DNA of 64,000 nt, from the IMG/VR virus record IMGVR_UViG_3300028048_001604. The stretch is one strand, 5' to 3'. Below, in pieces: positions 1-64,000 of this stretch (position 1 is its first letter; every line of letters starts with the position of its first letter). The notes beneath the pieces are model-generated. The model did not search any database. It was not told the DNA's origin and saw only the letters and a list, made by a program, of their open reading frames with translations. The position numbers were made by a program, and so were the translations under genes. This DNA is from an uncultured virus (IMG/VR IMGVR_UViG_3300028048_001604) (Duplodnaviria; Heunggongvirae; Uroviricota; Caudoviricetes).

Positions 1-583
1 CCCCTTCTGCATTACCCTGTCCGTTTGCTTGACCTAATTGATAAGCCTCTGACGTAGGTAAATCATATGAAGTATCGGTATACGTAGCTCGAACATTTAA
101 TGTATCACCTGGTACTACCATATCACCGAAATCTTCGGTAGTTGTAAGACTGATATTCAGCAACTCACCAGACATAGAATACAGATATGAATTTTTCTTA
201 GTCTGCTCACCTAGAGTTGAATCCCAAAACAGGATTGTGTTACCCCGTAAATAGTAGGCTGCATATCTTTTACCTACTACTGCGTCTTTATCAGACCAAC
301 GAACAATAGTACTTCTAGTCTTACCATCAGAGAATTTCATTGTGCCATACTGTTGAAATTCTTTATAATACATATTATATGGCTCAATCATATCTTCTGT
401 AATAAGAGCATTGGCTGAAATTGAGTCACCCTTAATACGTACTACCTTGATTGTTTTACGCGTCTCTATACTACCAATAGCAGTAATAATAGAAACAAAA
501 ATAATAACTCCAAGTGCTAGAAGAATACCTATTGTTCTACTTTTTACAATATTAGCATTTCTAGGTTTCAAATTGATTGCCAT
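1..583 (-). CDS. SAF-domain / Flp pilus assembly CpaB-like membrane-anchored protein (3' end runs off the window)
   Basis: Not in the ORF track; translated by hand from ATG at 583: MAINLKPRNANIVKSRTIGILLALGVIIFVSIITAIG (TM), then VVRIKGDSISANALITEDMI...DAVVGKRYAAYYLRGNTILF (SAF-like) and FGDMVVPGDTLNV (RcpC-like). AAGGAGG RBS upstream. Confidence 0.6.
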   Translation of the reverse strand, partial: MAINLKPRNANIVKSRTIGILLALGVIIFVSIITAIGSIETRKTIKVVRIKGDSISANALITEDMIEPYNMYYKEFQQYGTMKFSDGKTRSTIVRWSDKDAVVGKRYAAYYLRGNTILFWDSTLGEQTKKNSYLYSMSGELLNISLTTTEDFGDMVVPGDTLNVRATYTDTSYDLPTSEAYQLGQANGQGNAEG

Positions 584-594
584 TTCAAGCCTCC

Positions 595-2178
595 TTAATT
601 ATTGAAATCTGCTTGTACATACAGTGTTATATACCCTCTATCTAACATGGGTAAAATAAGACCATCTTCTAATAATACCCCGAATGATTTGACGATTTTA
701 CCGTCTACATTATATTCTATATATTTGTATTGTTTATTACCGTCTGAATCACGTTCAATTTTGAACTTCCTATTTGTACGTGGGTCTACCCTATCTGGAA
801 TCTCACCTCGTAGAATATCGTTTTCAGTAAGTTCACGTTCTTTGTAACGAGATGCAGTAATAGAGTAATTGTCTCCAGTATAACGATAATAAATTCTATC
901 TTCATTTACAAGATACGTATTTTCAGTAGCGTCTTGACTACCCCTATTCATTATTGTAAACATCATATTGTTTACATCAATAACAGTAGGATTAGTATGA
1001 TGTTGAACTAGTTCAGCGTCAGCTATTTGATAATTCAACTCATTAAAGATTTTACCGTCTCTATCAGGCTTAAAATTCTTTATACCAAAAGCGTCTTTGT
1101 GCCCTCTAGCGTCTACTCCTAAAGATTGGAAAATCATTTTGTAATCTACGTCTTTATATTTACCACGTACAGATGCTCTTGTAACTACCCCGTGCCTTAT
1201 AGTCAGACCTAGAGTTGTTACATTTTTATGATTATCTTTATACTTACTACAAACTGCACCGATAAAACTTTCTAAAGGTATATTTTGGTCTGCAAAAGCA
1301 TTTGAGCCTATACAAATTACGTGTAGATTTGATAAGGTTAAAGGGTGACTCTTTTCTAGCATAAGACCTACAAGTTCTTTTTGGTCAGCCTGTATGTTTC
1401 CAACAGGAGCTGACTTACCCAAAACGAAGTCTACTGCCTCAGCTTTCATACCATATCTTAACATAGAATTGATAAAAGGACTTAAACTGAAATCAATAAA
1501 ATTTCTAGTAAGACGTGGTGCCCCAAACTGATAATCTTTACGCATACCTGAATAATAGGCAGACATTAGCCACTTAAAATACCCAACCTGTACGCTTTTC
1601 TTATACAAATCTTTTAGATATGTACGAGAATCAGCATTTCCAATGTGTCTTACATCAGAAAGTAATGTAATACCAACCATAGCACGGTGTTCTTGCGTAG
1701 CAAAATCGGGATATAATTTAGATATTACTTCATAGAAAACACCTGCCCCAGACTGATACCGTTTTTCTGGGTCTTCAAAGGTATACTGATTACAAATAAG
1801 AATACCTTCACACCCTGTAGAGTTAGATGTAACGTGAATAAATTCAGATGCGTCATCTTCTTCGGCTATATCGTGATGGTCTGTTGCTAGTACAACAACA
1901 TCTGAATCTACTAATTCTTGCAATTTAGCCTTTGAAATATTAAAATCGGCAGTAATAACCAAATAACCACGCAATTCTTCAACTGGCTTAAGAAAACCAT
2001 GGTCTCTGTTGTCATTTACCCAAGTTTTGTAATCAGTTCTACCCAAAATTTGCTCGGCAAAATCAACTTCTAATTTAAGCGAATACAGACCATCTACATC
2101 CGGGTCTCCATATAGAAGAAGAGGTCTGTTTTTGTACTTATTCAATATTCTTCGATAATCACTTATACCCTTGTACAT
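595..2178 (-). CDS. recJ: DHH-family RecJ-like single-stranded DNA exonuclease
   Basis: YGDPDVDG, ITAD, TDHH, SGAGV, LSDV motifs and DHHA1-like SVRG...RGHKDAFG. Confidence 0.8.
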   Translation of the reverse strand: MYKGISDYRRILNKYKNRPLLLYGDPDVDGLYSLKLEVDFAEQILGRTDYKTWVNDNRDHGFLKPVEELRGYLVITADFNISKAKLQELVDSDVVVLATDHHDIAEEDDASEFIHVTSNSTGCEGILICNQYTFEDPEKRYQSGAGVFYEVISKLYPDFATQEHRAMVGITLLSDVRHIGNADSRTYLKDLYKKSVQVGYFKWLMSAYYSGMRKDYQFGAPRLTRNFIDFSLSPFINSMLRYGMKAEAVDFVLGKSAPVGNIQADQKELVGLMLEKSHPLTLSNLHVICIGSNAFADQNIPLESFIGAVCSKYKDNHKNVTTLGLTIRHGVVTRASVRGKYKDVDYKMIFQSLGVDARGHKDAFGIKNFKPDRDGKIFNELNYQIADAELVQHHTNPTVIDVNNMMFTIMNRGSQDATENTYLVNEDRIYYRYTGDNYSITASRYKERELTENDILRGEIPDRVDPRTNRKFKIERDSDGNKQYKYIEYNVDGKIVKSFGVLLEDGLILPMLDRGYITLYVQADFNN

Positions 2179-2373: not shown

Positions 2374-2379
2374 ACTTAT

Positions 2380-2595: not shown

Positions 2596-2725
2596 ATCAT
2601 ACCTCCGTTACAAATACCAAATTTGTGATATAAAAATACTCCTCCCCACATATTATAATAACATAGTATGCAGAAAGGAGTAACAAAGTCTTATAAAGTT
2701 TTTATACAAGTACTAATGATACAAA

Positions 2726-3484: not shown

Positions 3485-3532
3485 AATTGTAAACCCTCCT
3501 AATGCAAATTGCTTTACTTAATTTCTAATAAT

Positions 3533-3561: not shown

Positions 3562-3597
3562 TAGTATATGTAAAAATTTTCGCACAATCTCGACATA

Positions 3598-5528: not shown

Positions 5529-7835
5529 TCAGCTACCTAAAGACATAGTCTGACCGTGATTTGGGTTTTCTACCATAACATTCATTTCGTCTATAAACAT
5601 ACCATGTTTGCCTACAAGAGTATAGATATGCTCACGTTCCTTGGCACGTGTACAAGCAATATAATGTACCCTACGCTCTTCCGCTACAAGGTCGGCGTCT
5701 GATAAATCAGTTTTGCTAGACGGAAATACACCATCACTATCATTCCAAATATAAACCGAGTCTGCTTCCTTACCCTTAAACTCATGTACAGTTGCTATCG
5801 TAATATTAGCATTTTTCAACTTGATAGCATTTTTAAGCCTGTCATTTATTCTAACTACATCATCTACAAATTCACGAATTGTGGCATAGTTGTTACGTTC
5901 TATAAGATTAAGTAACGCAGAAATCAGAGTTTTAGCACTCTCATTATATGTGGTTTTCTTTGCAAACGTCTTATCATACATATAAGCATACAGATAACGC
6001 AAACCAATAATATCCGCATATTGTACCCGATTACCCTGTTCATCAAACATCTCAGCACGTACAGACTTAATCAATTCTAGTAAAGATGGGCAACTATATT
6101 CAATATCTTCTAAAGGCATTGTCCATATTGTCATAGCACTTGTCTTGGTTTTACTATTTTCCAACGCATTTACTAATTCATTTACCTCGTACCTAGCATA
6201 ATAAGGTACAAGCATATTTAATGCAGACCGTACCTTTGTATCGCTTAACTGCATAAACAAATTAGCAATATTAAGAATACTACGTGGAAGTGAAGAAGAT
6301 AACGTCATGCCCTCAGACGAAATAGAATATCTACCCAATTTTGCTTTTTCAATATTTAATGCAGGAATGATACCTTCAAAATTAGTTCTACACAAAATTG
6401 CTACACTACGATTAGCATTAATATCTTCATCTATTGATTTAATAAGGTGGTCTGTCATATTAGACAAAGACATAAATTCATAGGCGTGTAATTCGCCTCC
6501 TTCCCTAGCACTTTTGATTGCTTGATTTTCAGAATCTTTATTCAAATGAATACTAGGTATGATAGGAGAAAGAATAGCCTCAGGACACCGCCAATTTACA
6601 CTCAAAGGAGTAATATTAGGATTGAAATCTTTAGGAAAATTCTCGGTCAGAACCTTACTATCACTACCCCTAAAGGAATAGATTATTTGAGATTGGTCTC
6701 CTACGACTACAATTTTACCTTTTGTTGGTATACCCGTATAAAGGGCGTCACGTTTATCAGTATCGAAAGTAGCGTCTGTATTTTCTACAAGATTGCCTCG
6801 CCTATAAGCACGTAGAATAGCATATTGAATTTGAGATGTATCTTGAAATTCATCTAGGTACATATAGTTGTAACGTGACGCTACAACATTTTGAACCGCA
6901 GGGTTTGGAGTAACATACAGATAACGATATAACAACTCGGAAATATCTTCAAAATCCATTACCCCACTTGCAATTCTTTCGCTAGAATACAACTGAATTA
7001 GCATATCAGTAACTTGTTTATTAAGGCAGTAGTCTGGAGCAGACGGGTGGCAATACTTTTTATCATCAAGCCTACTCCTAGCATAGGTAATTATTGAACC
7101 GATAATACGATAATCTTCGGCAGTTAAATTCTTACCATCATTTCTAACAATATGAGCCTTTCTAATAGCCCTTCTAAAGCAACCATCTAGTGTGGATTGT
7201 TCGCCAATATTGACCGTTACACCCATAGATTCAAGACAACGCTTAAATTCAGCATCTAGAGTACTAAACACAATCTGACCGGCAGTTTCAGAATACCCTA
7301 GTTTTCTTTGCCATTTTAACAGAGCTTGTTTCAACTCTTCCGCACCTGAACGTAAAAATGTACCTACAAATACCTTGTCTACAACTTGAACATTCATACC
7401 ATTAGGTAATGTCTGTACACGCATACAAGAGCCTGTTGCAATATCTTTTTGAATCTTAGAAATCAGAGCCGTTGTTTTACCTGCACCTGCTGCTGCGTTA
7501 ATAATCTGATTGCCATCAGTAGTTAACGCATAGTACAATTCAGTATATTCAATGTTATCATAGTCTGGCTTATAGTTTTTGCGTTCTTCATCAGACATAG
7601 CCATATATTGATTTTCCGTAACTACTTTAGGTAAATCTAAAGTTTCAGATACACAAACAAAAGGTAACTTGTAAATCAGTTTACCCGTCTTGTGTACTTG
7701 CGTTAAATATGCCCCTAGAGTAGTTTTAGTATTAAATACAGGAGCATAAACTTGTTTTGGTTTTTCATATGTACTACCCAAATTCGCCTTAAAATTTGCT
7801 AGGCGGTCTAATGTTGACATTAATTTACACCTCAC
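5529..7835 (-). CDS. UvrD/PcrA/Rep-family superfamily 1A DNA helicase (start may be 7820)
   Basis: AAAGAGKTT, YLDEFQDTS, VVGDQSQIIYSFRGS, NWRC, AILCRTN, TVHEFKGKE, EERRVHYIACTRAK. Confidence 0.95.
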   Translation of the reverse strand: MRCKLMSTLDRLANFKANLGSTYEKPKQVYAPVFNTKTTLGAYLTQVHKTGKLIYKLPFVCVSETLDLPKVVTENQYMAMSDEERKNYKPDYDNIEYTELYYALTTDGNQIINAAAGAGKTTALISKIQKDIATGSCMRVQTLPNGMNVQVVDKVFVGTFLRSGAEELKQALLKWQRKLGYSETAGQIVFSTLDAEFKRCLESMGVTVNIGEQSTLDGCFRRAIRKAHIVRNDGKNLTAEDYRIIGSIITYARSRLDDKKYCHPSAPDYCLNKQVTDMLIQLYSSERIASGVMDFEDISELLYRYLYVTPNPAVQNVVASRYNYMYLDEFQDTSQIQYAILRAYRRGNLVENTDATFDTDKRDALYTGIPTKGKIVVVGDQSQIIYSFRGSDSKVLTENFPKDFNPNITPLSVNWRCPEAILSPIIPSIHLNKDSENQAIKSAREGGELHAYEFMSLSNMTDHLIKSIDEDINANRSVAILCRTNFEGIIPALNIEKAKLGRYSISSEGMTLSSSLPRSILNIANLFMQLSDTKVRSALNMLVPYYARYEVNELVNALENSKTKTSAMTIWTMPLEDIEYSCPSLLELIKSVRAEMFDEQGNRVQYADIIGLRYLYAYMYDKTFAKKTTYNESAKTLISALLNLIERNNYATIREFVDDVVRINDRLKNAIKLKNANITIATVHEFKGKEADSVYIWNDSDGVFPSSKTDLSDADLVAEERRVHYIACTRAKEREHIYTLVGKHGMFIDEMNVMVENPNHGQTMSLGS

Positions 7836-11908: not shown

Positions 11909-12297
11909 AACAATTCTCCTTATACAATACAAATAATACAACAAAATACAACAGTAGACGTATAAAAAATAAATACAACTCAACAAACAAGATACATAAG
12001 ACACCATGTTTAGAAAAGTAGATTATATATTTATTCTTTATTTTCTACAAAGCCTATTTTAACATACTTTCAGAGAAAAAACAAGGTATAGCTCAAAAAT
12101 AATTAACCTTTCAAAATTTGTAAAATTTCTAAAAATGGGATAAATTTTTTTAATGATACATAAAAGTAGATTAAATATTCAACTTGAAAACACAAATTTG
12201 CCTTGAAAATTAAAAATTTATCTACAATAAAATATATAGAATATTAAATATAAATTCATAAGTACAAAATATACAAAATTTAACATAAAAATAAATT

Positions 12298-12960
12298 TTC
12301 AGCCTTGACAATAACTTTTACAACTCACATAATAACAAGACAAATCAAGAACTACCAAAAGACATTACAGAAAATTCAATAATTCACAAAGACATTTCAA
12401 AAGCAATCTTACCCAAATTATTCGAAATATCATTGTCAGAAAAGATACAACTTATAATCTTGACAAGTATTATGGTTGAGCCTATTCAACCTTGACAAAC
12501 ACGCAACCTGTTACACCAACAAGCATTATAATTAAGATTATTCAGCCTTGACAAACAAAATACAACTTACAATTCAAACAAACCTAGACAATCATTCAAT
12601 CTATCAACATAACAAGCCTATATGCTTATAAATAAACACTACCCAAAGACACAAACTAACTTTCAGCGTTGGTACAATCTACTATCATAACAAGCATATA
12701 CGATTATGTTATTTCAGCCTTATACAATAATATAATATATTATTATAATAAGCATATACTACTAGGTTATTTCAGCCTTCTATGAAAATATAATGTATTG
12801 CCATAACAAGCATATATGCAAGTTATTTTACACTACCCAAACATAATATCGCATTTAATATATTACGATAACAAGCATATACAATTAGACTTATTTATTT
12901 TTACATTTTACCACACATAATACATATAGTCAGGTTTGTCTTAACAAGCATACTACAACC
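12298..12960. repeat. Degenerate ~56-60 bp repeat family with alternating motifs TTCAGCCTT(GACA) and ATAACAAGCATATA
   Basis: TTCAGCCTT-like at about 12298, 12485, 12541, 12662, 12713, 12771; ATAACAAGCATATA-like at about 12609, 12687, 12745, 12803, 12868, 12941. Confidence 0.75.
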
Positions 12961-12990
12961 TATTACTTTAACAAGTACATATACTTAGGT

Positions 12991-13157
12991 TTTATTGCTA
13001 CCCGTTGGACTACTTGCCTTTGATACTACTTTATAGCCTGCTATCATAACAACAGTATATTGATAGGCTTTATTACTACCCGTTGGCTTACTTGTTTGAT
13101 ACTACTTTATAGCCTGCTATCATAACAACAGTATATTGATAGGCTTTATTACTACCC
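12991..13157. repeat. 76-bp-period direct duplication (63 bp identical) with internal inverted repeat
   Basis: 13019-13081 is identical to 13095-13157; each copy contains AGCC(TGC)TATCA...TGATAGGCT. Confidence 0.95.
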
Positions 13158-13467
13158 AATTCTTATTCACCTATAACATTTACTTTGCAATCTACTAGTA
13201 TAACAAGTATATATATGGCTAGGCTTACTTAATCTCTACAACAAACTAAACTTAAAATATTTACATTTATTGTGACTATAATTATTTAGCACATACAAAA
13301 ATTATTAATATTTGTATAGAAAATAATTACAATATGTTTATCACAAAATCTAAACTTAAAAGGCATTAGTACTACAAAAATACAAAACAAAGCCTTGACA
13401 TTTTATATAGCAATATACAAGGCATATAATACAAAACAAAACCATAGTTGCCGATTACAAAGCAAGT

Positions 13468-13634
13468 TTTACAGACTACATTTTCAGATTTACATATTGC
13501 AACGTCAGATTTATAAACTACGGTTTAGAATTATAGATTACATTCATAGATTTACAGACTACGTTTATAGATTTATAGCCTACATTCATAGATTTACATA
13601 ATACATTTATAGAGTTGTATATTACATTTATAGA
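13468..13634. repeat. Eight tandem ~21-bp iteron-like repeats, consensus TTTAYAGAYTACATTTATAGA
   Basis: units start at 13468, 13489, 13510, 13530, 13551, 13572, 13593, 13614. Confidence 0.9.
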
Positions 13635-13690
13635 TTTAATATACACATAAACAGAATAACAAAAAACAAATTGAAATTAAGAATAAACAA

Positions 13691-13925
13691 AAATCATACC
13701 TGACACATATAATTATAACCTAATATTAGATTTACATAAAACAGTACAGATTATTGACAAACAAAACAAGACTTACAACAAACAAAAATAAGGTAAATAC
13801 AGAATATCATAAATGTACCTGACATATACAACAACAATCTAATAACAGATTTATATAAAACAATACAGATTGTTAACAAACAAAATAAGAACTACAACAA
13901 ACAAAAATGAAGTAAATACAAAATA
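13691..13925. repeat. Two diverged A-rich 119-bp tandem units
   Basis: TACCTGACA at 13697 and 13816; both continue with TACAGATT...ACAACAAACAAAAAT...GTAAATACA. Confidence 0.85.
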
Positions 13926-14690
13926 CCCTGTTTGTACCTTGAATACCCAATACAAATTGGATATACATTTGTACCTTGAATACCCTATACAAATCTTTCA
14001 TATATCATTCGTATCTTGAATAACATATATACAAATCTTGAATAGATTATACGCGTCTTGAATACAAAATGTAAATCTACAATACCCTGTTTACATATTA
14101 AATACCAATATTCATACCTTGAATAACATATATACAAATATAGAATAGATTACGCGAGTCCCGAATACCATACTTGCATTGAGTACATCATACAAACAGA
14201 AGTATCTAAAACAAAACTAACAACTTGATAAAAATACACATAAAAATAGAGTATTCATAAAACCTAACGAATACCCTAATAAAACTAATGAGCCACACTT
14301 GTAACTACGATATAAAGTATAAATCTACAATACCTTATATGTGTCTTAAACACCATATTATAACTTGACTATCGAGTACAAACCTACAATACCTTACACG
14401 TATCTTGAATACCCTATTCAAAATCAGAGAACCTTATTTATAACTATAATAACAAATACAAGCCTACAATACCTTATACGTATCTTGAATACCCTTATGC
14501 AAATGGGTACAATACCATAACTTAAGTACCAAATACAAATCTAGAATACCTTATACGTATCTTAAACACCATACTTGTAACTAGAATACACTATTCACGT
14601 CTTGAGTATCATATTTGTAACTAGAACGCATTATTCGTGTCTTGAATACCCTATTTGTACCTAGAATACATTATTCGTGTCCCGAATACA
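13921..14690. repeat. ~20/40-bp repeat family with core CT(T/A)GAATACC(C)
   Basis: many CTTGAATAC copies; four clean 40-bp units at 14541, 14581, 14621, 14661, each with two 20-bp subunits. Confidence 0.85.
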
Positions 14691-14730
14691 AAAAAATAGG
14701 ATATCCGTTAAATATAACGAATACCCTATT
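14689..14730 (-). terminator. probable intrinsic terminator shielding the repeat block
   Basis: imperfect hairpin AATAGGATATCCGTTA / TAACGAATACCCTATT followed by a T-run on the minus strand. Confidence 0.55.
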
Positions 14731-14830
14731 ACAAATTGAAGTTCCTTGAAAATTAAAAAACTTTACAGTAACTTTAGCCTATATATGCTATACCCTAAAG
14801 TTAAATTCTACCTTAGATTTTACAAACTAC

Positions 14831-40482: not shown

Positions 40483-40483
40483 A

Positions 40484-47177: not shown

Positions 47178-50100
47178 GAGTTTTAGTATTTGTAGTAGCC
47201 TTTATTAGTCTTGCTTTTGATAAACTAGAATTATGGTTATTACTTACATCTCCTACCATAAAGATACAAGATTTACCTCTTGTCATCATTGTGTATATCA
47301 TATTATTGTTTACAAATGTTCCGTATGTATTGCCAACTGTGCAGATTCCAAGTTTTACTTCGGAGCCTTGTAGCTTATGTACTGTGCCTGCATAAAACAA
47401 CTCCAGATTCTGTATGTCCTCTCCAATAATATTAATACCTGAAGTATCCTGAGAACTACCTGTAAAAAGTGAGCAACGATATAAAATATTAAAGTATGTC
47501 TGAGATAGATAATCATAATATTTTACAACCATAAAATACTTATTGTTGCCTACCCAAGTCATATCGTCACGTAATGAATCTGGATATTCGTCAAAATCAT
47601 CTGGTTTTAATTCAACTTCATCTTGAATATAGATGTTGTCTGCACTTATAATGCCAACGAATACCCCTACATCTCCGTTGGCTATTCCATACCCGTATTT
47701 CTTGTTGATTGTACCATCAGACTGCAAATCTTCATACCACTGCATATTATACATATTCTTATTGGTATGAATTACACGGTCTCCAATTACAAAACGAGTA
47801 TTATTACAAATAACTGTTTTTCTATAGTCTCTGTTATCATTAAATATAGGTTGTAATACCCGATTGAGTGACGTGCTACTCCAAGAATATCTAGGTGTTT
47901 TATACGGTGTGATTACCTGTATATCATCTTTTGTAATATTTAGACTCGGTAGCTCTGGTATCTTACTTTGTAAAATAGCAATATCCCTTACAGTAGCCTT
48001 GCCTAGATAATATTTACATAACAGGCTTACAATGTAACTAATATCCTCATCAGAACAAGGTACTAAAAAGAAATCTTTTTCAGATGGTAACGGTAACATA
48101 GAATCTGCGTCACTATTATCTGTAACATAATTACTAGCCAAAGTAATATTAGAACCACTAGATGCTCGCTTTGATACATTTAAGTATTGTGTGGGCATGG
48201 TACGAAGATAATTTCTGAAAGGCAGGCTTTTACCAATCGGTGATAACTGCTGTGGGTCTCCAAACATATAAATGTAGCATGAGTCTAAGTCTACCCTCTT
48301 TAATACAGAAGTTAGTAGACTTAAAGAAACCATAGCTCCCTCATCAATAAGTAGAACTGAATCAGAAATAGTACCCGAAATATCATCATCTGACATATTA
48401 CCAAAAGAAGTACAAGTGTCTACCCCTATTCTACATAGTCTATGTAGAGTATAAACTCTACGCTTAATTACTTCCTGCATACGTTTTGCTGCCTTACCTG
48501 TTGGGGCACTGAAATATAAGTGCTTATTAGAGAGTCGTTCCAATATATATACAAAAAGTTCTGTATCTGTTGTCTTACCACTGCCTGCACAACCTGCTAC
48601 TAAACCAAAGCCATGTGTAAGTAGCATAGCTGCGTCTCTTTGCTCTGGCTCTAATGTGAATCCCTTTAAATTTTCAAACTCAGCAATTAGAGGCTCAATA
48701 TCGCTAGGTGTAATACCCGTTTCTTTTTCAGCTAACGATTCTGCACAATCAAATACATACAACTCTTGCTCTGCTAACTGATATGGTACGATACCGTTAT
48801 CAAAAGAAATACCCATGCCTGACCCTTTGTATTTCTCTACTGCTTGAGTAATATCATTGTAACTGAGTCGTCTTACATATTTATTTCCGATGGACTTAAA
48901 ACTAGCTGGACTATAAGTTGTAACAACTTTGCAGTCAAAATAAGTCTTCAATTCAGCAATAGTACCTGATTTAAGGAAAGTACCTGTTTCTGATACCCTT
49001 TTATATTCTGCCTTTGTTAGAGAAAGACCAAATGGTGTCTTCAATATACTATTCATATCATAAATAGTATTGTTTGTACCATCAAACATAAACTCGGAAT
49101 CAAGAATACCAATATTTCGTAGCTCTGCTAAATCTTGTTTATCCGCTACACCAACTGCTACTGCAATCTGTTCAACCTTGCTGTAATTAAGCAATCCGAA
49201 TAGGCAAATAATATACGGGTTTTCAGTTAATACCCTTACAATAGAAATATTGTAAAAATCGCAATACCCTTTGAGGTCTTCTATTACAGAGGTTTGAATA
49301 CCCAAGGTTATGCCTAGCATTTTTGCATAAAACATTTCTGTATCTGAAAAGGCATCGTTCACATAACTTTCTGTTACGTCTGAAAATACAGTATCATCTA
49401 TATAACAGTTACCGCAAACTAGGTCTCTAACTTGTGTTATATACTGTAAAACAAACTGCTCTACAGTGCTACCCAAATAAGGCTTACGACCTACGCTACT
49501 AAAGTCTGCTAGATATTTCTTTAAAAGAGTATTGCCTGTCCTTGCATATGTATCTGGCTTGGAAGATTTATATTTGATAAGTCTATCAAAAAGAGTAGAT
49601 ACCCTAGAGTTTACAGAGTCTGTTGGTCTGTAATCGTCTAAAATTGACTTTAGGTGATTTTGACGAACAGACTTACTGTTCTCTAATAAACCTCTAACTT
49701 TTTCAATATTGACAGTATTTTTCTGTACCTTCTGCCTATTGGTACGTGTTAGTGCTTTTGCAGGTTTTGCAGTCTGTTGCATACCCTTGAATTGACTGCT
49801 GTTTACAGTATTTGAGGTCTGTTGTATACCCTTTGATTGACCGTTATTTGTTAGGTCAATCTGCAACTCTTTCATTGTAGAAGTAAATCTTGGTAATGCA
49901 GTAACATAAGTTGGTAAGTCTAATCTACCAACTGCTGCACTTCTACGCAAATACTCACATAAATCATGTTCATTTGAAATACCCTTGAAACTTAAGTTGT
50001 TTAATGGTGTCTTGGCAATCGCCCATGATTTACCGTTGCGTACCCATTTGAATAAACTGCAATAATACTTATCTATTCTACTAAAAACTAGAGTGCCTTC

Positions 50101-50421
50101 CAAGGTGTACCAATCTGGGTATTTTGCGTCTTTCTGTACATAAGTTATTAACTCTCCGTTTACCATGTACAGATTCTTTTCTGATTTAAGACCTAACTGC
50201 TGTTCTAGTTCTCGCTCATAATAAGATAAATCTACACAAAAGCAACTTAAATTGGCGAAGAAACCATTCGTCTGTACTTGTACGTCTCTACCCAAGTTTG
50301 GTGGTGTGCTTAATGGCTTGTTGATATACCCCATAACACGTATATTTTTCAGAGTACCATTACCACCCTTACCCTGCCAATCCATGTGAGCGAATTTTAC
50401 TAAATCTATATAGTTAATCAT
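47161..50421 (-). CDS. recD2: RecD2-like superfamily 1B helicase with long N-terminal extension
   Basis: ENPY, GCAGSGKTT, APTGKAAKR, TLHRL, IDEGAMV, GDPQQLSPIG, QVITP, GDRVI, NGDVG, TVHKLQGSE, YTMMTRGK. Confidence 0.92.
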   Translation of the reverse strand: MINYIDLVKFAHMDWQGKGGNGTLKNIRVMGYINKPLSTPPNLGRDVQVQTNGFFANLSCFCVDLSYYERELEQQLGLKSEKNLYMVNGELITYVQKDAKYPDWYTLEGTLVFSRIDKYYCSLFKWVRNGKSWAIAKTPLNNLSFKGISNEHDLCEYLRRSAAVGRLDLPTYVTALPRFTSTMKELQIDLTNNGQSKGIQQTSNTVNSSQFKGMQQTAKPAKALTRTNRQKVQKNTVNIEKVRGLLENSKSVRQNHLKSILDDYRPTDSVNSRVSTLFDRLIKYKSSKPDTYARTGNTLLKKYLADFSSVGRKPYLGSTVEQFVLQYITQVRDLVCGNCYIDDTVFSDVTESYVNDAFSDTEMFYAKMLGITLGIQTSVIEDLKGYCDFYNISIVRVLTENPYIICLFGLLNYSKVEQIAVAVGVADKQDLAELRNIGILDSEFMFDGTNNTIYDMNSILKTPFGLSLTKAEYKRVSETGTFLKSGTIAELKTYFDCKVVTTYSPASFKSIGNKYVRRLSYNDITQAVEKYKGSGMGISFDNGIVPYQLAEQELYVFDCAESLAEKETGITPSDIEPLIAEFENLKGFTLEPEQRDAAMLLTHGFGLVAGCAGSGKTTDTELFVYILERLSNKHLYFSAPTGKAAKRMQEVIKRRVYTLHRLCRIGVDTCTSFGNMSDDDISGTISDSVLLIDEGAMVSLSLLTSVLKRVDLDSCYIYMFGDPQQLSPIGKSLPFRNYLRTMPTQYLNVSKRASSGSNITLASNYVTDNSDADSMLPLPSEKDFFLVPCSDEDISYIVSLLCKYYLGKATVRDIAILQSKIPELPSLNITKDDIQVITPYKTPRYSWSSTSLNRVLQPIFNDNRDYRKTVICNNTRFVIGDRVIHTNKNMYNMQWYEDLQSDGTINKKYGYGIANGDVGVFVGIISADNIYIQDEVELKPDDFDEYPDSLRDDMTWVGNNKYFMVVKYYDYLSQTYFNILYRCSLFTGSSQDTSGINIIGEDIQNLELFYAGTVHKLQGSEVKLGICTVGNTYGTFVNNNMIYTMMTRGKSCIFMVGDVSNNHNSSLSKARLIKATTNTKTLGEKF

Positions 50422-54219: not shown

Positions 54220-57200
54220 TTATAGCTTATAATATGCACTAGTAAACAGCTGTGTTAAAAAGCCAATCTTATCACTAGGTATAGCTGTTAAAGTCTCCGC
54301 GATTTTTTCTTCTTTATCCCTTGGGTCTACATAATACTGACATATCGTATATTCGTTTGGTGGGATACTTTCTGTATCTGCATATTTAGTACTAAAAGTC
54401 TTTAGCATATTAAGGCAACCTGCATTACCCAAGAGTATGGCTGTATTTACATAAAACTTATGCTCTGGTACAGAAGTAAATACCCCTTGACGCTTAATAG
54501 TATCGAAAAGAAGATTGAGTCTTGCAGTTTCTGCATCTTCTTCGTTCATATCAAACATGTCTGGAATACCCTGAGCAGTGTTGTTTGTATTAGATACCTC
54601 TACATTAGGAATATCTAATAGATTAACTTGTGACCTATCAGTCTTATGTAGTTTACAAAACATATCCAAGGCTGACTGAGTTGTGGTTGCAGGTTCAAAA
54701 GACTCTAAAGGATTACCCTGCTCGTCTAAATATACGCTCTGAATATGGTAAGTTTTGTCTAGGTACTCCTCAAATTCTTTTCTGTAGAAATTGAGGTTCA
54801 AAGGCTCATCTTTGAAGAATTCCTTGATAGCCTGCTTATACATTTTACTATCTTCTTTACAACAACCTAAAACTTCATTGTTTAGAGTAGGTTTGATTTC
54901 TTTACCCTGGCTGTTTTCATCTAATATCTGGTTACGAATATCTCGTACCTCAAAATCGCGAATAATGTCTGGAATACTATTACAGAATTCTTCTGGGTTT
55001 TGATGCCATAACGGATAACCTGTTTTTCCGTACTTCTTTACCCACTCCCATTGTAACTTAATAGACCATTCTACTGATTTAGCCTCATACCAGTTTCTGC
55101 CATACCCAAAACCCATATACAAAGGACACCAAGGTGTGCCATCTTCATTTACAACTTTAACTTCATACTCCTCACGAATAACGCGCAAGAAGTCGGCAGG
55201 ATTAATATCAACTGACACCTCACCTAATAATTCATCATGGATAAAGCCTGAGAACAATACCTTACCTAGCCAACCTTCTTTACAGATGCGTTTGAAAAGT
55301 CTGCCTACACCTATTTTATATAAGTCTGCTGCGGTATTATGCGTTACTAAACCATCTGCTACATAATACCCACAATCTGTGTTACAAACATCATACATAT
55401 CAATGTATTCATCTGTAATCTCGACAGATTTAACTTTTAAGCCTATATTATAATTATATATATCTGCTATTTTTCCAACTGCACGCGAAAACTTTGTTAG
55501 TGAGGACTTAGTTGAAATATTACACTCAATAAAATGTCTATCTGTTAAATCTTTGCACTCTACATAGTTATCAATATTACTAGGGTCTTTACCCACAAGA
55601 AGAAATTTGTGTATTGGACTGCATATAAACTTTGTATCATCTTCAAATGTTATGATGCACTTCTGTTTCTTACCACTATATAAAACATCGCCATGAGTCC
55701 AGTCTGTACCGTTCCATACAAAACCTGAATACCCTACTAATTCTTTTATAGGCTTAACACCAAATTCTTTAGTTTCAATTTTTGTGTCTCCGTGTAAGCA
55801 TCCCTGAATGACCTGATTGCCTGCTTGTCTACGTATAGCATTTACAGTAAAATTCTGACGATTATAATATCTACGTCTACCAAAATAGGTTTCGGTAAAG
55901 CCTTCGTTTATACCCTTATCTCTATGATGTTCAAACCAATCTCTAATATCTTCCTGCCCATTGAAATAAGCCTTACGCAGTTCTCTAGCCTTGATTGTAT
56001 TTTCTGCACTAGGTTCTCCGAATACCCTTGCACCTAGAGATTCGTCTCCCATACCATATGGTAAACCGAAATTAATACCCTTGGCTGCTTTACGGAGTTT
56101 CTTTGTAACTGCTGAATAAGGTACACCATACATATGAGCTGCCTGATAAGCATGGTAATCGAAGTCTGGGTCTGCAAAAGCCGTCATAATACGTTTATTA
56201 CCTACCATGTTAGCAAGTACACGATACTCGATAGATGAATAATCGGTATCGAACATATAATACCCTGGTCTTGGTACTACGTGTTTCTTGATTGGGTCAT
56301 TATAGGACTGATAATTAGGGTCATTAATACTAACTCTACCAGTGGATGCTCCAGTCTGATTTACAGACGAAAATACATAACCATCAGAAGTAGCAAACTT
56401 CGGGAAGTTATCGATAATCTTACGTACTGCCTCTGCCTGTCTATATTCAGAAAGGTAAGATGCGAACGGATATAACGGTTCATCGTCAATATTAGTCATT
56501 TCTGCTAATTTCTTGATGGTGTCCTTATCCGTTGTAGGTCTGCCTGTTTTTCTTGAAATCTGCTCGGGAATACCCAGTTGATGGTACATAATATCAATTA
56601 ACTGAGCAGGAGAGTTAGGATTAAACTTTTTACCTGCAATCTCCTCCATTTTAGCCATTGTATTCTCTTGAATCTTTGCAATATCTTCTCTAACTTTATC
56701 GAGAGCAGTAATATCAATCTTGTGACCATAGAACTCCTGATATGCTACTGCAAACATAAAGTTTATTTCAATCTGATATACTTTATTAGCATTATATTTA
56801 CCCAACAAATCGGTTTCCATTGCATACTTAAACAATCCCTGAGTATTATCAGTATCTGCACAAGCATACAAACGTACCAAGTTGTATGGCAAATCCCAAA
56901 ACTTAATGTCTGAATCTTCACCCCAAGCACCGTCTTTTATCAAGTCAGACAGTTCTAGAGAATCTCTATGCAGTAATAAATGAGCATTTTCCTTCAAGCT
57001 GAGTCTCCAATTCAGTCTAGACGCTCCAAGAGTTAAAGCAATTAGCCACATTGTATCGTGTACGATATTGCAATTAATATCATAAATATATGCAACCTTC
57101 CAATCGAATTCACCGTTATGGGTAATTAATTTTTTACCCTCAAGAATAGGTCGCATATAATGTTCCATAAAATAATAGTGGTCGCCACCACACAAATTTG

Positions 57201-58122
57201 GAATAGCTTTCATCTGTGTTGGGAAGAAGAATGATTCTCCATACTTTACAGATAAAACTACCCCTACTAGTTGGTCGGCTTGACCGATACGAGATTTGAA
57301 TGTGATGTTAAGACCTGTAGTCTCGGTATCGTAAAAGACATACCCATCCCAATCCATAATATATTTACATATTTCTTCAAGGTTTTCATCAGTTACAATC
57401 TGATAATTCTTTTCAAGTAACCATGAAAATTCTTTTTCTGGGTGAGCTGCTATTACCTCTTCGATAGTTTGATATAAATTGCCAGTAGTAACAGGTCTCG
57501 GTGCCTGCTTTGGAAGTGGGAAACCAAGATATTCTTCGTCAAATTTGATACCGAGCGAATACCCGTTTTTTACTAGTGTTAAAAGGCTTGTTGTTGCATT
57601 ATCCTCTGTTAAATCAATCTTAAAATCATCTGTCTGTATATGCAAATCAGTAATAACTCCGTAGAAAAGAGTTACCCTAGCAAATACCTTTGTTTTATCC
57701 ATCGGGAATTTAATTTCATATTCAGTACTAGGACAAGTCTCAATATCATTAGATGCTAACTGCAAGCCTGTATACCCTAATTCGTTTGTTACAGTACACT
57801 GTTGCTTTGCATACCTAATTAAAGCACCTAATCTGCACCAAAAATCTTCATTTATAGGTGCTTTTACATTTTTTCCTGCACTATTCTTACGAATGGCTGA
57901 ATCTACACTAATTCTGCTTACTTTAATATCTAAACGATGCTCATTCAGTCCATCATAAGAATCTAGTTCAATTTCATTATCAGTTTCAAAGGCTCTGTTT
58001 GAAACCATATTATTAAAGGCAGTTACACCTTTAGAGATAACACGTAAACGCGTCTCGGATAAGTTATCCATACCCTCGACATCATACTTTAACCCTTTAT
58101 AATCAATACTACCTGTTAACAC
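54220..58122 (-). CDS. polA: Family A DNA polymerase with 3'-5' exonuclease domain and an intein
   Basis: ExoI YDTETTG, ExoII HNGEFD, ExoIII YACAD; TGRVS..PNYQ, motif A DYSSIEYR, motif B RKAAKGINFGLPYG, motif C IHDEL. Confidence 0.96.
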   Translation of the reverse strand: MLTGSIDYKGLKYDVEGMDNLSETRLRVISKGVTAFNNMVSNRAFETDNEIELDSYDGLNEHRLDIKVSRISVDSAIRKNSAGKNVKAPINEDFWCRLGALIRYAKQQCTVTNELGYTGLQLASNDIETCPSTEYEIKFPMDKTKVFARVTLFYGVITDLHIQTDDFKIDLTEDNATTSLLTLVKNGYSLGIKFDEEYLGFPLPKQAPRPVTTGNLYQTIEEVIAAHPEKEFSWLLEKNYQIVTDENLEEICKYIMDWDGYVFYDTETTGLNITFKSRIGQADQLVGVVLSVKYGESFFFPTQMKAIPNLCGGDHYYFMEHYMRPILEGKKLITHNGEFDWKVAYIYDINCNIVHDTMWLIALTLGASRLNWRLSLKENAHLLLHRDSLELSDLIKDGAWGEDSDIKFWDLPYNLVRLYACADTDNTQGLFKYAMETDLLGKYNANKVYQIEINFMFAVAYQEFYGHKIDITALDKVREDIAKIQENTMAKMEEIAGKKFNPNSPAQLIDIMYHQLGIPEQISRKTGRPTTDKDTIKKLAEMTNIDDEPLYPFASYLSEYRQAEAVRKIIDNFPKFATSDGYVFSSVNQTGASTGRVSINDPNYQSYNDPIKKHVVPRPGYYMFDTDYSSIEYRVLANMVGNKRIMTAFADPDFDYHAYQAAHMYGVPYSAVTKKLRKAAKGINFGLPYGMGDESLGARVFGEPSAENTIKARELRKAYFNGQEDIRDWFEHHRDKGINEGFTETYFGRRRYYNRQNFTVNAIRRQAGNQVIQGCLHGDTKIETKEFGVKPIKELVGYSGFVWNGTDWTHGDVLYSGKKQKCIITFEDDTKFICSPIHKFLLVGKDPSNIDNYVECKDLTDRHFIECNISTKSSLTKFSRAVGKIADIYNYNIGLKVKSVEITDEYIDMYDVCNTDCGYYVADGLVTHNTAADLYKIGVGRLFKRICKEGWLGKVLFSGFIHDELLGEVSVDINPADFLRVIREEYEVKVVNEDGTPWCPLYMGFGYGRNWYEAKSVEWSIKLQWEWVKKYGKTGYPLWHQNPEEFCNSIPDIIRDFEVRDIRNQILDENSQGKEIKPTLNNEVLGCCKEDSKMYKQAIKEFFKDEPLNLNFYRKEFEEYLDKTYHIQSVYLDEQGNPLESFEPATTTQSALDMFCKLHKTDRSQVNLLDIPNVEVSNTNNTAQGIPDMFDMNEEDAETARLNLLFDTIKRQGVFTSVPEHKFYVNTAILLGNAGCLNMLKTFSTKYADTESIPPNEYTICQYYVDPRDKEEKIAETLTAIPSDKIGFLTQLFTSAYYKL
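55336..55800 (-). mobile_element. Mini-intein (155 aa, no homing endonuclease) in polA
   Basis: NQVIQG|CLHGDTKI ... CSPIHKF (block B) ... MYDV (block F) ... YVADGLVTHN|TAAD; excision restores conserved QGTAAD. Confidence 0.95.
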
Positions 58123-61422: not shown

Positions 61423-62402
61423 TTTAAGTTTGCTCCTTTATACTCATTAACCTCAAACATATACATGAATCTCAAAAAATCTGCATCGCTATGCCAACTA
61501 GGTTCTAGCATGGTATAAACTGAAAGTAATCTACTCATAGGTATATCTTTTAGTCTCCATATAAAACGATTATACCTAGATAACTTTGATTCATTATACC
61601 CTGTAGGGAGATTTTCTATTCGCTTATAGATTGTACCGCTAATAAGCAATTCTTTAATCTGTATGAATGACTTGAGATTTGCTAGTAGATAATTATGAGT
61701 GGTCGAATACCCTAAGGCGTCTACCAATTCTAGACCTGCTTTTACCCTATTTTTCATTTTTGTTTTAGCACCACGTTCTGATGTACTAGGAGTAAAGTTT
61801 AATATATTTATTAAGTAACTCTCTGTTGTTAGACCGCCTATACCAAACTGCTCCGTTATTTGACGCTTTGTTTTCAACTCGGTGCCATCATGTAGTGCCT
61901 TAAATATTTGCATACATACGTCTATATCTCCCGAATAACCCTCACGTACAAACTTCAAAAGATTCTTATCTAGCTTGTCTGGACATATAGTGTCGTATAG
62001 AAATAGAAAATCATTAGTCCTTAAATACTTAAAATAGAAATCGTAGATAATGGTTGTAGTCTTACGGAAAGAATCTTTGAACTTCTTGAATACCCCATAG
62101 TTTTCACAAGTACATAAGAATGTTACTGTTGTAGACATACTAATTGTCCTATGTAATTCTTTATTATTAAGTTTCATTAAGTCTATTTGAACAAACCATC
62201 TATCTCCAAAAGGTGGAACAATACCCTGCAGGTCACGAACTTTTGCTAAATCCTTTTGAGTATGTACCTCAATAATAGTATCTCTCGTAGTACCTATACG
62301 AGCCTTTAATTTATCTACCATATAGATTGTTAAAAGGTTACTAGGTGATTGCAAAAGTACTACATCTGGTAGAGGTCGTTCACTTAAATCTCGTAAAAGC
62401 AC
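61419..62402 (-). CDS. possible clamp-loader delta (HolA-like) subunit
   Basis: 327 aa; VVLLQ, PPFGDRWFVQI (compare PFFxxRRLVxV), GYSGDI patterns; no Walker A. Confidence 0.4.
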   Translation of the reverse strand: MLLRDLSERPLPDVVLLQSPSNLLTIYMVDKLKARIGTTRDTIIEVHTQKDLAKVRDLQGIVPPFGDRWFVQIDLMKLNNKELHRTISMSTTVTFLCTCENYGVFKKFKDSFRKTTTIIYDFYFKYLRTNDFLFLYDTICPDKLDKNLLKFVREGYSGDIDVCMQIFKALHDGTELKTKRQITEQFGIGGLTTESYLINILNFTPSTSERGAKTKMKNRVKAGLELVDALGYSTTHNYLLANLKSFIQIKELLISGTIYKRIENLPTGYNESKLSRYNRFIWRLKDIPMSRLLSVYTMLEPSWHSDADFLRFMYMFEVNEYKGANLK

Positions 62403-64000
62403 TTATACCTCCTTGACAAAGCCAAACTGCTTTGCATTCGCTCTTAATTCATCACATAGTACTGTGATGATAGTATTATAAACCTTACCGAATTTTAATT
62501 CATCCCAAAAGTCACGCTGAACCTGAACAAAGCCTGCATCCCACTCTGTAACTTTATCTCTGTCAGAATAAGACGCTGAAAAATATAACTTTACAAAATC
62601 ATATAACTTCTTGGCAGTTTCAGACCAATAAGATTTTGATTCTTCAATCTGCTTTAATACAAAACCATTCTCTGCTGTAGTATTCTTAAGGTCTTCAAGT
62701 ACCCTAGGGTCTTTGCATACTGATTCTACATCTGCCTTACTTAAAATAAACATCTTATTCATAAATGTAGTACCCTTACCACGATAAGAATAAGCTTTAT
62801 TATCTGAATCAAGTAAGAATAATACAAGGGCATTTCTTAACCAACTAGCAAAGCCTTCGCTTTCAGTATTGGGTGCATATAATACCCTGCCCTCATAAGT
62901 TGTATTGTCGGCATACAATCTTCTAAATGTATAGTTGGCTACACATCTCCAAAAGTTTTCTTCAGTGATTGATACATAGCCTTGCTTATATGGTAGAGTT
63001 GTGATACTTCTGTTATGGATATTATCATTACCCATTACACCTAAAGCACCCTCAAGAATAGGAGAAGTTACCAACTCGCCATCTTTATGTTTAATCTCAA
63101 CAGGTAACTGAAGTCTTGGTAGTACAGTCTTGAAAGCACCACTTCTATCAACTACCCAATCGTACAAAGACATGGTATCAGTATCCCTAGATACAGTAAC
63201 TGTATTCTTCAACTCAATTTTACCATCTAATGTCTTTACACGCTTTTCTAGAACTACATTAGTGTCTAGAGTTGCACTATCGAACCAGTCACCTCTTGAC
63301 TGCATAATAAGATATACAAAATCATCGGTAATAAAACCGTTATTCTCAAATTTATATACCTTGTTTAGTTGTACTAGCATATCACTAGTAGTAAAATCAA
63401 CTGGAGCAATTATGCTCAATCTGACATTTTGCTTCTGTAGAAGTACAGTAAGTAGCATAATCTGATACAGGTATTGATACCCTGTTGACTTGCTGAACGG
63501 AGTGAAGTCAGTAAAATTTAATGCTACGGTAGGCTCCTGCATTGACTTTGTTACTGCGGAACTGCCACTACCCATATTAAGAATGTCTAAATGAATTACT
63601 AATTCCTTGTCGCTATTTAATGCCTCACGCAATTTAGATGGTAGTTTACTTAAAAAACTATCTAATGTGTAGTCGTTTAATTCATACCCAATCAAATTAA
63701 AATCTGAAACGTCTACATTCGGTGTCTTATTCAAAGTCAGTGCATTTAAAACGTCTGGCTTGCAAGACATGGCAACGCAATCAAGACTGCTAGGATAGTT
63801 TAATGAATCTGAAAGTGACCATAAAAGTGTATCGTTTGAAGAAATATTTTCAAGTAACTTTGTAAATACCTCTGATTCAAGAACTGAATCAATATGTGTG
63901 GTCGTAGAAATAGTACCCTGAATTATATTCTCTAACTCAGCCTTACTTTCTTTAATCTCGTCTAAAGTACTGCCTCTATCTATAAATGTGTTTACAATAA
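62403..64000 (-). CDS. large hypothetical protein, 5'-partial; C-terminus resembles the specificity region of some type IIG-like R-M proteins
   Basis: Frame stays open from 63770 to the window end (IVNTFIDRG...LDCVAMSCK); ITEENF..RR..APN..NAL and WDAGFVQ motifs. Confidence 0.6.
   Translation of the reverse strand, partial: IVNTFIDRGSTLDEIKESKAELENIIQGTISTTTHIDSVLESEVFTKLLENISSNDTLLWSLSDSLNYPSSLDCVAMSCKPDVLNALTLNKTPNVDVSDFNLIGYELNDYTLDSFLSKLPSKLREALNSDKELVIHLDILNMGSGSSAVTKSMQEPTVALNFTDFTPFSKSTGYQYLYQIMLLTVLLQKQNVRLSIIAPVDFTTSDMLVQLNKVYKFENNGFITDDFVYLIMQSRGDWFDSATLDTNVVLEKRVKTLDGKIELKNTVTVSRDTDTMSLYDWVVDRSGAFKTVLPRLQLPVEIKHKDGELVTSPILEGALGVMGNDNIHNRSITTLPYKQGYVSITEENFWRCVANYTFRRLYADNTTYEGRVLYAPNTESEGFASWLRNALVLFLLDSDNKAYSYRGKGTTFMNKMFILSKADVESVCKDPRVLEDLKNTTAENGFVLKQIEESKSYWSETAKKLYDFVKLYFSASYSDRDKVTEWDAGFVQVQRDFWDELKFGKVYNTIITVLCDELRANAKQFGFVKEV

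Follow-up and report, generated by a model that had tools for sequence, protein, structure and literature searches.

Why would one short word recur hundreds of times on a single strand of a large mobile element, within genes and outside them alike? The question is raised by a 64,000-nt stretch of DNA from an uncultured virus (IMG/VR record IMGVR_UViG_3300028048_001604; "the window" in what follows), in which an original prediction, made from the letters alone, had noted an abundance of the hexamer GGGTAT (ATACCC on the plus strand), nearly always in one orientation, and had taken it for a selected, oriented signal owned by the element. That claim was upheld by codon-preserving shuffles, by synonymous codon choice, by spacing, by relatives and by controls from the same genome bins: selection maintains GGGTA(T) as a strand-specific cis-signal in a family of Bacillota replicons that resemble pXO16 (pBTHD789-1), the 350-kb conjugative plasmid of Bacillus thuringiensis sv. 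israelensis. Elements of the pXO16 type are giant, poorly understood replicons of a conjugative or phage-like kind.

A polar pentamer in the window

ATACCC was found 177 times on the plus strand of the window and only twice on the minus strand (at 10689-10694 and 50117-50122), the two reverse copies being those that had been spotted by eye; the earlier local counts (26 on the plus strand in 1-12000 and 25 in 54001-60000) were likewise exact. In 100 dinucleotide shuffles, counted on both strands, the hexamer occurred 25.2±5.4 times (maximum 41) as opposed to the observed total of 179. Every long open reading frame (ORF) of the window is on the minus strand, so that the motif reads GGGTAT in the sense direction, and the GC skew of the plus strand was negative throughout. 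The enrichment and polarity of the hexamer were thus real, but the hexamer was not the unit. In a maximum-order Markov test, the enriched core proved to be the pentamer GGGTA, with 367 sense and 16 antisense copies (z 15.2), and no hexamer of the window contributed signal above it. On the sense strand, GGGT was continued to GGGTA in 367 of 409 instances and GGG in 367 of 589, and the base that followed GGGTA was most often T (T 177, A 84, G 68, C 38). The copies, 177 of which are GGGTAT, are dispersed over positions 1..64000 of the minus strand at a mean spacing of 175 nt.

Chance alone (zero order) would give 59 copies of GGGTA per 64 kb, or ~1 per 1,100 nt. Synonymous-codon shuffling of the 57 ORF-genes of the window left 113.0±7.6 copies (maximum 134) as compared with the 332 observed (z 29), and 43.9±5.1 copies of GGGTAT as compared with 163, showing that the enrichment survives a test under which a mere codon effect would have vanished. 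Whole-codon shuffles of the same ORFs gave 60.0±7.7 copies of GGGTA, and the rise from 60 to 113 (synonymous) to 332 (observed) indicates that the order of amino acids has been shaped too. Individual choices reflect the same pressure. The glycine codon ahead of tyrosine was GGG in 65 of 87 cases (elsewhere, 62 of 971), the valine codon after NGG was GTA in 97 of 103 (elsewhere, 664 of 1235), and the wobble base preceding GGT-A was G in 170 of 362 (as compared with 62 of 696). The first G of the word fell in the three codon phases 65, 97 and 170 times, in keeping with the prediction that all phases are used, and 35 further copies were non-coding; each kb of non-coding DNA held 5.1 copies on average and each kb of coding DNA 5.8, an equal density. 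Copies at 13923-14726 confirmed that the motif also lies inside the non-coding repeats.

GGGTA was the most over-represented pentamer of both the window (z 20.9) and pXO16 (z 17.4). The runner-up words AGACG, CAGAC and GACCC reached half of its z or less, kept to one codon phase (e.g., 9/11/117) and were not enriched in all relatives, so that no other word was enriched to an equal degree; AGAC[G/C] was rejected as a second motif, being phase-locked and not family-wide. Other words were polar on the sense strand as well. The enrichment of GGGTA is no effect of codon usage or composition.

The word in pXO16 and its relatives

The window was placed by a 1287-aa P-loop ATPase (19609..23472, minus strand), which served as the family marker. 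It matched pXO16 with 25.9% identity over 84% coverage (E 5e-53), and among plasmids it matched just 10 records, all from B. thuringiensis and ~350 kb in length (pXO16/pBTHD789-1); a megablast search of the window against phage records and a tblastn search of the marker against phages gave no match. A large ATPase is present as originally predicted, but the label FtsK/HerA-type was not supported. No Pfam or NCBIfam profile matched the protein, a PDB profile search returned 0 matches at E<=1, and by protein-language features (0.87-0.88) it looks VirB4/TraG-like, a lead according to which it is probably a conjugation ATPase of the VirB4/TraG type. By tblastn, genes for PolA, an HD protein, a Toprim protein, SbcCD, an AAA ATPase, the marker ATPase, a PcrA-like protein and a RecJ-like protein were collinear in the window, in pXO16 and in a 95-kb contig of a Lachnospiraceae metagenome-assembled genome (MAG; contig G001:C1). 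The window and pXO16 thus have in common a collinear replication/transfer core, coding sequences (CDS) that all run one way and the polar motif, whereas their proteins are only 25-42% identical and pXO16 prefers AGGGGTA. The element to which the window belongs is at least 187 kb long, the marker protein having been found on a contig of that size. Window DNA was matched in bovine-gut metagenome runs and in metatranscriptome assemblies, the latter being no proof of transcription; matching runs differed by only 7 single-nucleotide polymorphisms over the 20 kb compared. Judged from these matches, the window is a new bovine-gut member of the family and a distant relative of pXO16. Relatives recognized by the marker ATPase are common in metagenome contigs, including human-gut assemblies, on contigs of up to 360 kb.

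GGGTA recurred in relatives with as little as ~26-30% identity in the marker ATPase. Over the whole 349,599 bp of pXO16, sense/antisense counts were 930/46 for GGGTA, 658/5 for GGGGTA and 461/2 for AGGGGTA; there were 19-36 copies per 10 kb around the whole replicon, in all three codon phases, and GGGGTA was observed 502 times as compared with 119±10 in synonymous shuffles. The Lachnospiraceae contig carried GGGTA end to end (368/11). The word was also found in G002:C14 (162/23), a 56.6-kb contig from an integrative element with serine recombinases, and in G003, a record of 140 kb (657/51), where synonymous shuffling gave 262 copies as compared with 599 observed. A profile search with the marker ATPase yielded 78 further metagenome and viral loci (1.2 Mb, ±10 kb around the ATPase), which were scored as positive if GGGTA reached at least 2× expectation with at least 90% of its copies on the ATPase strand. 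By this definition, 46 of the 78 loci were positive (jointly, 2945 vs 107 copies in 759 kb), 14 had GTTTA instead of GGGTA, and 16 had neither, three of these being enriched but 85-89% polar. As a control, we counted the word within the ORFs (~211 kb) of twelve 20-kb stretches, taken from contigs of the G001 and G002 MAGs other than those of the elements, and found 102 sense and 87 antisense copies, or 0.3-0.9 per kb; the comparison depends on MAG binning, which could be wrong, yet the difference is plain. The motif belongs to the element family, not to the host.

The sister clade is represented by G004, a complete 264.6-kb record with terminal repeats. Here the top word of the shuffle test was GTTTA(T), with 1141 copies as compared with 624 after shuffling (z 20.7); its extension GTTTATC occurred 175 times as compared with 41. 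GTTTA was split 1275/326 between the strands, was present in all phases and in non-coding DNA, and had a coefficient of variation (CV) of its gaps of 0.81. The same GTTTA(T[C]) was seen in loci L093-L103, L110 and L112. The word differs between clades, yet it keeps the 3' TA(T).

The copies are laid out evenly. The gap CV of GGGTA in the window was 0.75 as compared with 0.99±0.05 for random placement, and three replicons gave 0.75 (the window), 0.81 and 0.73 where random placement gives ~1.0. The largest gap in the window was 771 nt (random placement, 1127±213), and the largest gaps in pXO16 and in the Lachnospiraceae contig were smaller than in all 500 random placements. Along the genes of the window the profile was flat (deciles of 30-39 copies; chi-square p 0.99), and copies per gene were under-dispersed, with an index of 0.29 in the window and 0.61-0.75 in other replicons (Poisson = 1). 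Across the family there was one copy per ~175-380 nt, with gaps not above ~0.8-1.7 kb. Taken together, the even spacing, flat profile and under-dispersion show that the word is laid down per length of DNA, irrespective of gene borders.

Genes ran in a single direction throughout the window, among every listed CDS of pXO16 and in the 78 loci, and the main strand held 118 of 119 ORFs in G003 and 208 of 212 in G004. Minority-strand ORFs of at least 450 nt had inverted skew and junk translations and look spurious; we saw no convincing opposite-strand gene in the family DNA (~1.2 Mb of loci, pXO16, G001:C1, G003 and G004). The sole real opposite-strand gene encodes a serine recombinase at the edge of G002:C14, where the motif has 1 copy vs 2, too few to tell. 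No switch of polarity or of GC skew was seen anywhere on the complete 350-kb pXO16, nor within the 260 kb examined of the 264.6-kb G004. Because all genes are co-oriented, polarity linked to transcription and polarity linked to replication or transfer are inseparable here. The strand polarity of 96-99% implies a reader that sees one strand (single-stranded DNA [ssDNA] or RNA) or tracks along DNA.

Polar, over-represented words, such as Chi and the FtsK-orienting polar sequences (KOPS), are known for chromosomes. Like Chi, KOPS and the SpoIIIE recognition sequences (SRS), GGGTA is a short word that is over-represented, strand-polar and clade-specific across a whole replicon. The known cases are chromosomal, 60-90% polar, switch at the origin and terminus, and are read by host enzymes; the family word, in contrast, is 96-99% polar, never switches, and sits in mobile elements that span Bacilli and Clostridia. 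What is new, then, is a word private to a giant mobile-element family, present once per 175-380 nt, never changing strand and with clade-specific variants. Held at such polarity, this word of 5 nt takes precedence over codon choice and amino-acid sequence and varies from clade to clade; GGGTA can also serve as a sequence signature for recognizing the family and the orientation of its strands. We found no such polar word on mobile elements described in the literature, although the primary pXO16 papers (Makart et al. 2015, 2018) might mention one. Passages on pXO16 in PMC6199540 mention no polar motif. They state that its CDS all lie in one orientation and that a phage-like nature is suspected, that it transfers ssDNA through a distant type IV secretion system (T4SS), and that plasmids mobilized by it require an oriented single-strand origin; reviews describe pXO16 as 'terra incognita' and, in their passages on it, name no signals for its replication or transfer.

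Possible readers of GGGTA

Among the readers that the original prediction had listed, a primase ranks first. Our preferred reading, which we put short of an even chance, is that GGGTA marks the points at which the split primase of the family, of the DnaG/T7 type, begins synthesis on a strand that is always copied discontinuously. In unidirectional (rolling-circle-like) replication, co-directional with transcription, the sense strand would serve as template for the lagging strand, and/or it would be the strand passed as ssDNA in conjugation; a position on the template of the lagging strand would require that unidirectional replication indeed run co-directionally with the genes. The element primase, made up of three parts (Toprim core, separate CHC2 Zn-ribbon and DnaB-like helicase), would recognize 5'-GGGTA-3' and would start synthesis with ATP opposite the T, the 3' A being cryptic, to yield pppACCC. 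Selection would keep the site about as dense as T7's own sites are, despite the rarity of G-rich words in AT-rich DNA, and GTTTA(T) of the sister clade would be a site of this kind that yields a different primer (pppAAAC).

Parts of such an enzyme are encoded by the family. In the window, a Toprim protein at 45352..46152 (minus strand) corresponds to the catalytic core of a DnaG-type primase without the Zn finger (TIGR01391 positions 195-338, E 9e-13) and is 39% identical to its counterpart in pXO16, 50-51% in G001:C1, 35% in G003 and 32% in G004. Pfam searches located a Zn_ribbon_DnaG protein and a DnaB-like helicase in pXO16, and homologs of the Toprim, Zn-ribbon and helicase proteins are present in G003 and G004. 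A close parallel is the gp4 primase of T7. According to PMC9198812, its zinc-binding domain (ZBD) recognizes 5'-GTC-3' in the template of the lagging strand, and the product is pppACC(A/C). As in T7, a short G/T-rich word of the format N..N-T-(cryptic base) would be recognized in the lagging-strand template; genes for a family-A polymerase, Toprim, CHC2 Zn-ribbon and DnaB-like helicase are all present in the family. T7 gp4, whose sites have a GTC core, makes pppACCA on templates such as 3'-CTGGT-5' and uses ACCC primers, ACCC being the primer expected from GGGTA. The family primase differs in being split into separate genes and in that its cryptic base would be A. On this last point, PMC2978363 reports that the T7 H33A substitution shifts recognition from GTC to GTA and GTG, and that in d(CTA) and d(TTA) the middle T is where DnaG of Firmicutes initiates. 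With T-A at their 3' end, GGGTA and GTTTA alike fit the format 5'-(N)n-T/C-cryptic base-3', with a purine-NTP start allowed. Firmicute DnaG is similar in its cryptic 3' A and its start opposite the middle T, and the sister-clade GTTTA ends in TTA; on the other hand, those are host enzymes of trinucleotide specificity, whereas the present word has 5-7 nt and is peculiar to one family of mobile elements; no bias was seen on the other contigs of the two bins.

Density and layout are compatible with priming. The three T7 primase sites total 161 on the sense strand of the 40-kb T7 genome, or ~1 per 250 nt, and with a chance density for GGGTA of only ~1 per 1,100 nt, selection to a workable density is plausible. 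Even spacing with gaps of no more than ~0.8-1.7 kb fits Okazaki-type priming, and the constancy of polarity and skew around replicons fits a strand that is identical all the way round.

Several points weigh against a primase. In T7 itself the sites are neither polar nor enriched (GGGTC 39/55, TGGTC 79/62, GTGTC 43/42), which leaves genome-wide selection of primase sites without precedent; T7 was accordingly dropped as a precedent for polar sites, and the family site differs from those of T7 in being selected genome-wide. The G002:C14 contig has the motif but neither PolA nor Toprim on its 56.6 kb, and the window Toprim query found no homolog in the G002 bin; what this contig and the window have in common is a transfer ATPase, a lysozyme and an HD protein. 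The window Toprim lacks a Zn finger, and no ZBD gene was found in the 64-kb window. The direction and mode of replication and the identity of the transferred strand are supplied by the reading itself, as is the GGGTA specificity of the family primase, which is predicted. With all genes co-oriented, a transcription or RNA signal would show the same polarity, and GGGTAT is what we take to be a σB-type −10 hexamer.

Also possible, and held slightly more tentatively, is a broader notion, namely that the word is an element-private code of strand identity, borne about every 200 nt by the strand that is displaced and transferred, and read on ssDNA only by the element's own primase or by a Chi-like helicase-nuclease partner. 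An entering single strand of 100-350 kb would be primed or spared along its whole length, whereas host or competitor DNA would not, and the clades would have diverged in word (GGGTA, GGGGTA, GTTTAT) together with the reader, as Chi and RecC have. Either way, the word offers a handle on the conversion of a single strand of 100-350 kb into duplex DNA, or on replication in one direction. If true, either genome-wide selection for primase sites or a Chi-like code belonging to a mobile element alone may have been seen here for the first time.

More doubtful is a signal in transcription or RNA, in which GGGTA(T) would be a non-template −10-like element, acting as a promoter, a pause site or a site of σ retention, for RNA polymerase with a σB/σF-like factor, or GGGUA a site for an RNA-binding or processing protein. 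The claim that no described system has this motif was not quite right: GGGTAT turns up in articles that deal with the σB promoters of Bacillus and Listeria, and GGGTA in articles about mycobacterial SigF. The letters are identical to those of the σB/σF −10 element and lie on the non-template strand, T is favoured after GGGTA, and among these strictly co-oriented genes it is always the sense strand that carries the motif. Metatranscriptome assemblies contain the region, which does not prove that it is transcribed. A −35 partner is missing from most sites, however: GTTT at a spacer of 11-18 nt was found at 25 of 367 sites against a background of 5.6%, three other replicons were similar, and no upstream position was informative in 4 replicons. 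We therefore rejected a σB promoter for the bulk of the sites. One site per 175 nt, flat and under-dispersed, is also unlike transcription units, as are hundreds of evenly spaced intragenic copies unlike known σB/σF promoters, and Pfam revealed no sigma factor among the window ORFs.

Position relative to gene starts bears on the same question. Starts in the window carry GGAGG, and GGGTA lies within 25 nt of only 4 of 57. In pXO16, GGGTA is found at most 20 nt upstream of the start in 109 of 456 ORFs, which speaks for a signal in transcription or RNA, and the motif doubles as a Shine-Dalgarno (SD)-like element in about a quarter of pXO16 genes. As a ribosome binding site in general it was rejected, given the use of GGAGG in the window and the location of 728 of the 930 pXO16 copies inside ORFs; SD-like words are avoided within genes, whereas GGGTA is enriched there.

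We consider it unlikely that GGGTA is a private Chi-like site, read on ssDNA by a helicase-nuclease set of the element (PcrA/UvrD-like, RecD2-like, SbcCD, RecJ-like) and switching it from degradation to protection or recombination, which would shield the forks or linear intermediates of the element or mark the element as self. A polar, over-represented word on the leading strand is the geometry of Chi, and the even, short word found here would lie on that strand if replication were co-directional. The Chi of B. subtilis is the 5-mer AGCGG, and the length and density of GGGTA are within its range; clade-specific variants are known for Chi also. Suitable genes exist in the conserved core, all on the minus strand of the window. 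They comprise a PcrA/UvrD-like superfamily 1A helicase at 5529..7835 (pcrA E 5.6e-38; 33% identity to pXO16; present in 21 of 54 GGGTA-clade loci and 0 of 24 other loci), an SbcD-like metallophosphoesterase at 36459..37481 and an SbcC-like ATPase at 39334..40524 (both from profile matches and relatives), and a RecJ-like DHH exonuclease at 595..2178 (29% to pXO16). Nonetheless, no AddAB/RecBCD-type helicase-nuclease with a recognition subunit was detected, nor any AddB/RecC-like protein, many window ORFs being unannotated, and the 5529..7835 helicase is PcrA-sized with no match to a nuclease domain. G002:C14 has none of the PcrA-like, RecD2-like, SbcCD and RecJ-like genes, and the unpolarized counts (102 vs 87) on other contigs of the two bins argue that a host enzyme is not the reader. 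AGCGG itself is not enriched in pXO16 (83/51 vs 147 expected). RecD2, which the original prediction had named as a candidate reader, fares poorly across the family. The gene at 47161..50421 (minus strand) encodes a 1086-aa protein whose C-terminal half is a RecD2-like superfamily 1B helicase (34% to G001:C1), and it had no match in pXO16 and no relative in viral contigs. The 580-aa N-terminus of this protein has no assigned family. The protein gave a weak match to TraA_Ti relaxase-helicases (E 7e-10) and is a candidate relaxase-helicase of the element.

Less probable still is a KOPS/SRS-like guide that orients a translocase, either an FtsK-like coupling protein or a VirB4-like ATPase, during transfer. 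The family marker is, as a lead, an ATPase of the T4SS type, FtsK-like proteins are encoded in pXO16, G003 and G004, and G002:C14 has the motif while sharing mainly transfer genes with the window. Known guides are 10-70 times sparser than GGGTA, which tells against the idea. They are G-rich polar words, as described in PMC3384302, and to this extent similar. Polarity never switches around complete replicons, there being no point of convergence in complete pXO16 or in the 260 kb of G004, and the FtsK-like protein of pXO16 matches only the FtsK_SpoIIIE motor domain (Pfam, E<=0.01) with no gamma domain, so that the KOPS-like candidate of the original prediction is disfavoured. In addition, pXO16 is reported to transfer ssDNA (PMC6199540).

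The non-coding repeats bear on a further candidate, a coating, partition or initiator protein that would nucleate at iteron arrays and spread to dispersed sites, which we regard as very unlikely. An AT-rich non-coding block of 3.1 kb (12008-15100, GC 0.29) contains several repeat families, among them an iteron-like array with ~20-nt periodicity at 13921..14795 (minus strand; sense unit ~ATTTGTATAGGGTATTCAAG; repeat families D1, D2, D4 and D6). The array holds 10 copies of GGGTA, all of one polarity, its other units being GGTATT or GTGTAT variants. A comparable 2.5-kb array in G002:C14 is made of AAATCTACAGAT and CTGGGGTACT units, and the extended motif of the arrays is clade-specific (AWAGGGTATT in the window, CTGGGGTACT in G002:C14), as a nucleating protein might have it; ParM homologs are present in pXO16, G003 and G004. 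A binder of double-stranded DNA does not need a strand polarity of 96-99%, however, and most array units are GGTATT variants rather than GGGTA. The ORF at 10880-12007, proposed as the binder of the sites, is not conserved: neither pXO16, G001:C1 and G002:C14 nor any of the 78 family loci has a homolog of it. The remaining AT-rich part of the block (12008..13920, minus strand), a possible origin, origin of transfer (oriT) or centromere region, contains 58-nt repeats at 12673-12911, two identical 63-nt copies at 13019-13081 and 13095-13157, 21-nt repeats at 13444-13646 (sense AAATCTATAAATGTA type) and 119-nt repeats at 13697-13934. A gene for a 76-aa J-domain protein (15741..15971, minus strand; DnaJ E 1.2e-13) adjoins the block and is present in 36 of 54 GGGTA-clade loci.

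Finally, that the word has no function and is a by-product of codon-pair bias, or of a bias in mutation or repair that is strand-asymmetric and depends on context, is hardly credible, for although GC skew is strong and uniform and several other words are polar on the sense strand, GGGTA occupies all codon phases and non-coding DNA where the runner-up words are phase-locked, shapes the amino-acid level, is under-dispersed in its spacing, and is replaced by a different word in the sister clade.

Other genes and sequence features

The window was annotated with Pfam, PHROG and NCBIfam profiles. Its family-A DNA polymerase (54220..58122, minus strand; 42% identity to pXO16 and 59% to G001:C1) has a 3'-5' exonuclease domain and is interrupted by an intein, with an Intein_splicing match at residues 818-929. 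A conserved 375-aa protein (42498..43625, minus strand) matched no Pfam family but contains, in our own reading of its sequence, a C-x10-H-x4-C-x2-C motif, making it a candidate gp32-like ssDNA-binding protein; it was found in 18 of 54 loci and is 28% identical to its pXO16 and 46% to its G001:C1 homolog. Methyltransferases and HD proteins are encoded as well. The 136-aa ORF at 29258-29668 (minus strand) matched only the N-terminal helix-turn-helix of IS605 OrfB/TnpB-type transposases and is probably a truncated transposase remnant, lying on the same strand as all other genes. A 1196-aa protein (25544-29134, minus strand) with a long acidic, repetitive, D/E/S-rich N-terminal half, a transmembrane-like stretch and a globular C-terminal part gave no family match, and may be a surface or T4SS component.

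Further observations were made on composition. GGGTC was nearly absent from the sense strand (3 copies in the window, 11 in pXO16 and 1 in G003, as compared with 23, 132 and 43 antisense). We rejected this depletion as a signal, since GACCC is locked to the GAC-CCN phase and G001:C1 does not show the bias, for which codon context is probably responsible. GATC was absent from the window (0 vs ~200 expected) and occurred once in pXO16 (~1004 expected), but was present in the relatives L009 (22) and L010 (48), which looks like restriction avoidance specific to some hosts. Homopolymers were avoided in pXO16 genes (AAAAAA 25 vs 793 and TTTTTT 10 vs 165 in synonymous shuffles) and, with z ~−3.7, in the window.

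Among the loci, L090 had almost no ORFs of at least 100 aa under code 11 or under any single stop reassignment, while GGGTA was counted 73/3; a recoded genome was rejected because no single reassignment opens the frames, and the locus probably reflects an assembly rich in indels. Tandem paralogous ORFs form long runs in G001:C1 (1-35000, ~200 aa) and in pXO16 (~150 aa), for which reviews record such paralogues. A group of near-identical loci (L058-L069, L071, L083 and L085) on contigs of ~126-132 kb was recovered from many metagenome assemblies with GGGTA counts of ~90/1-2 per 22 kb, and may represent a common, complete member of the family.

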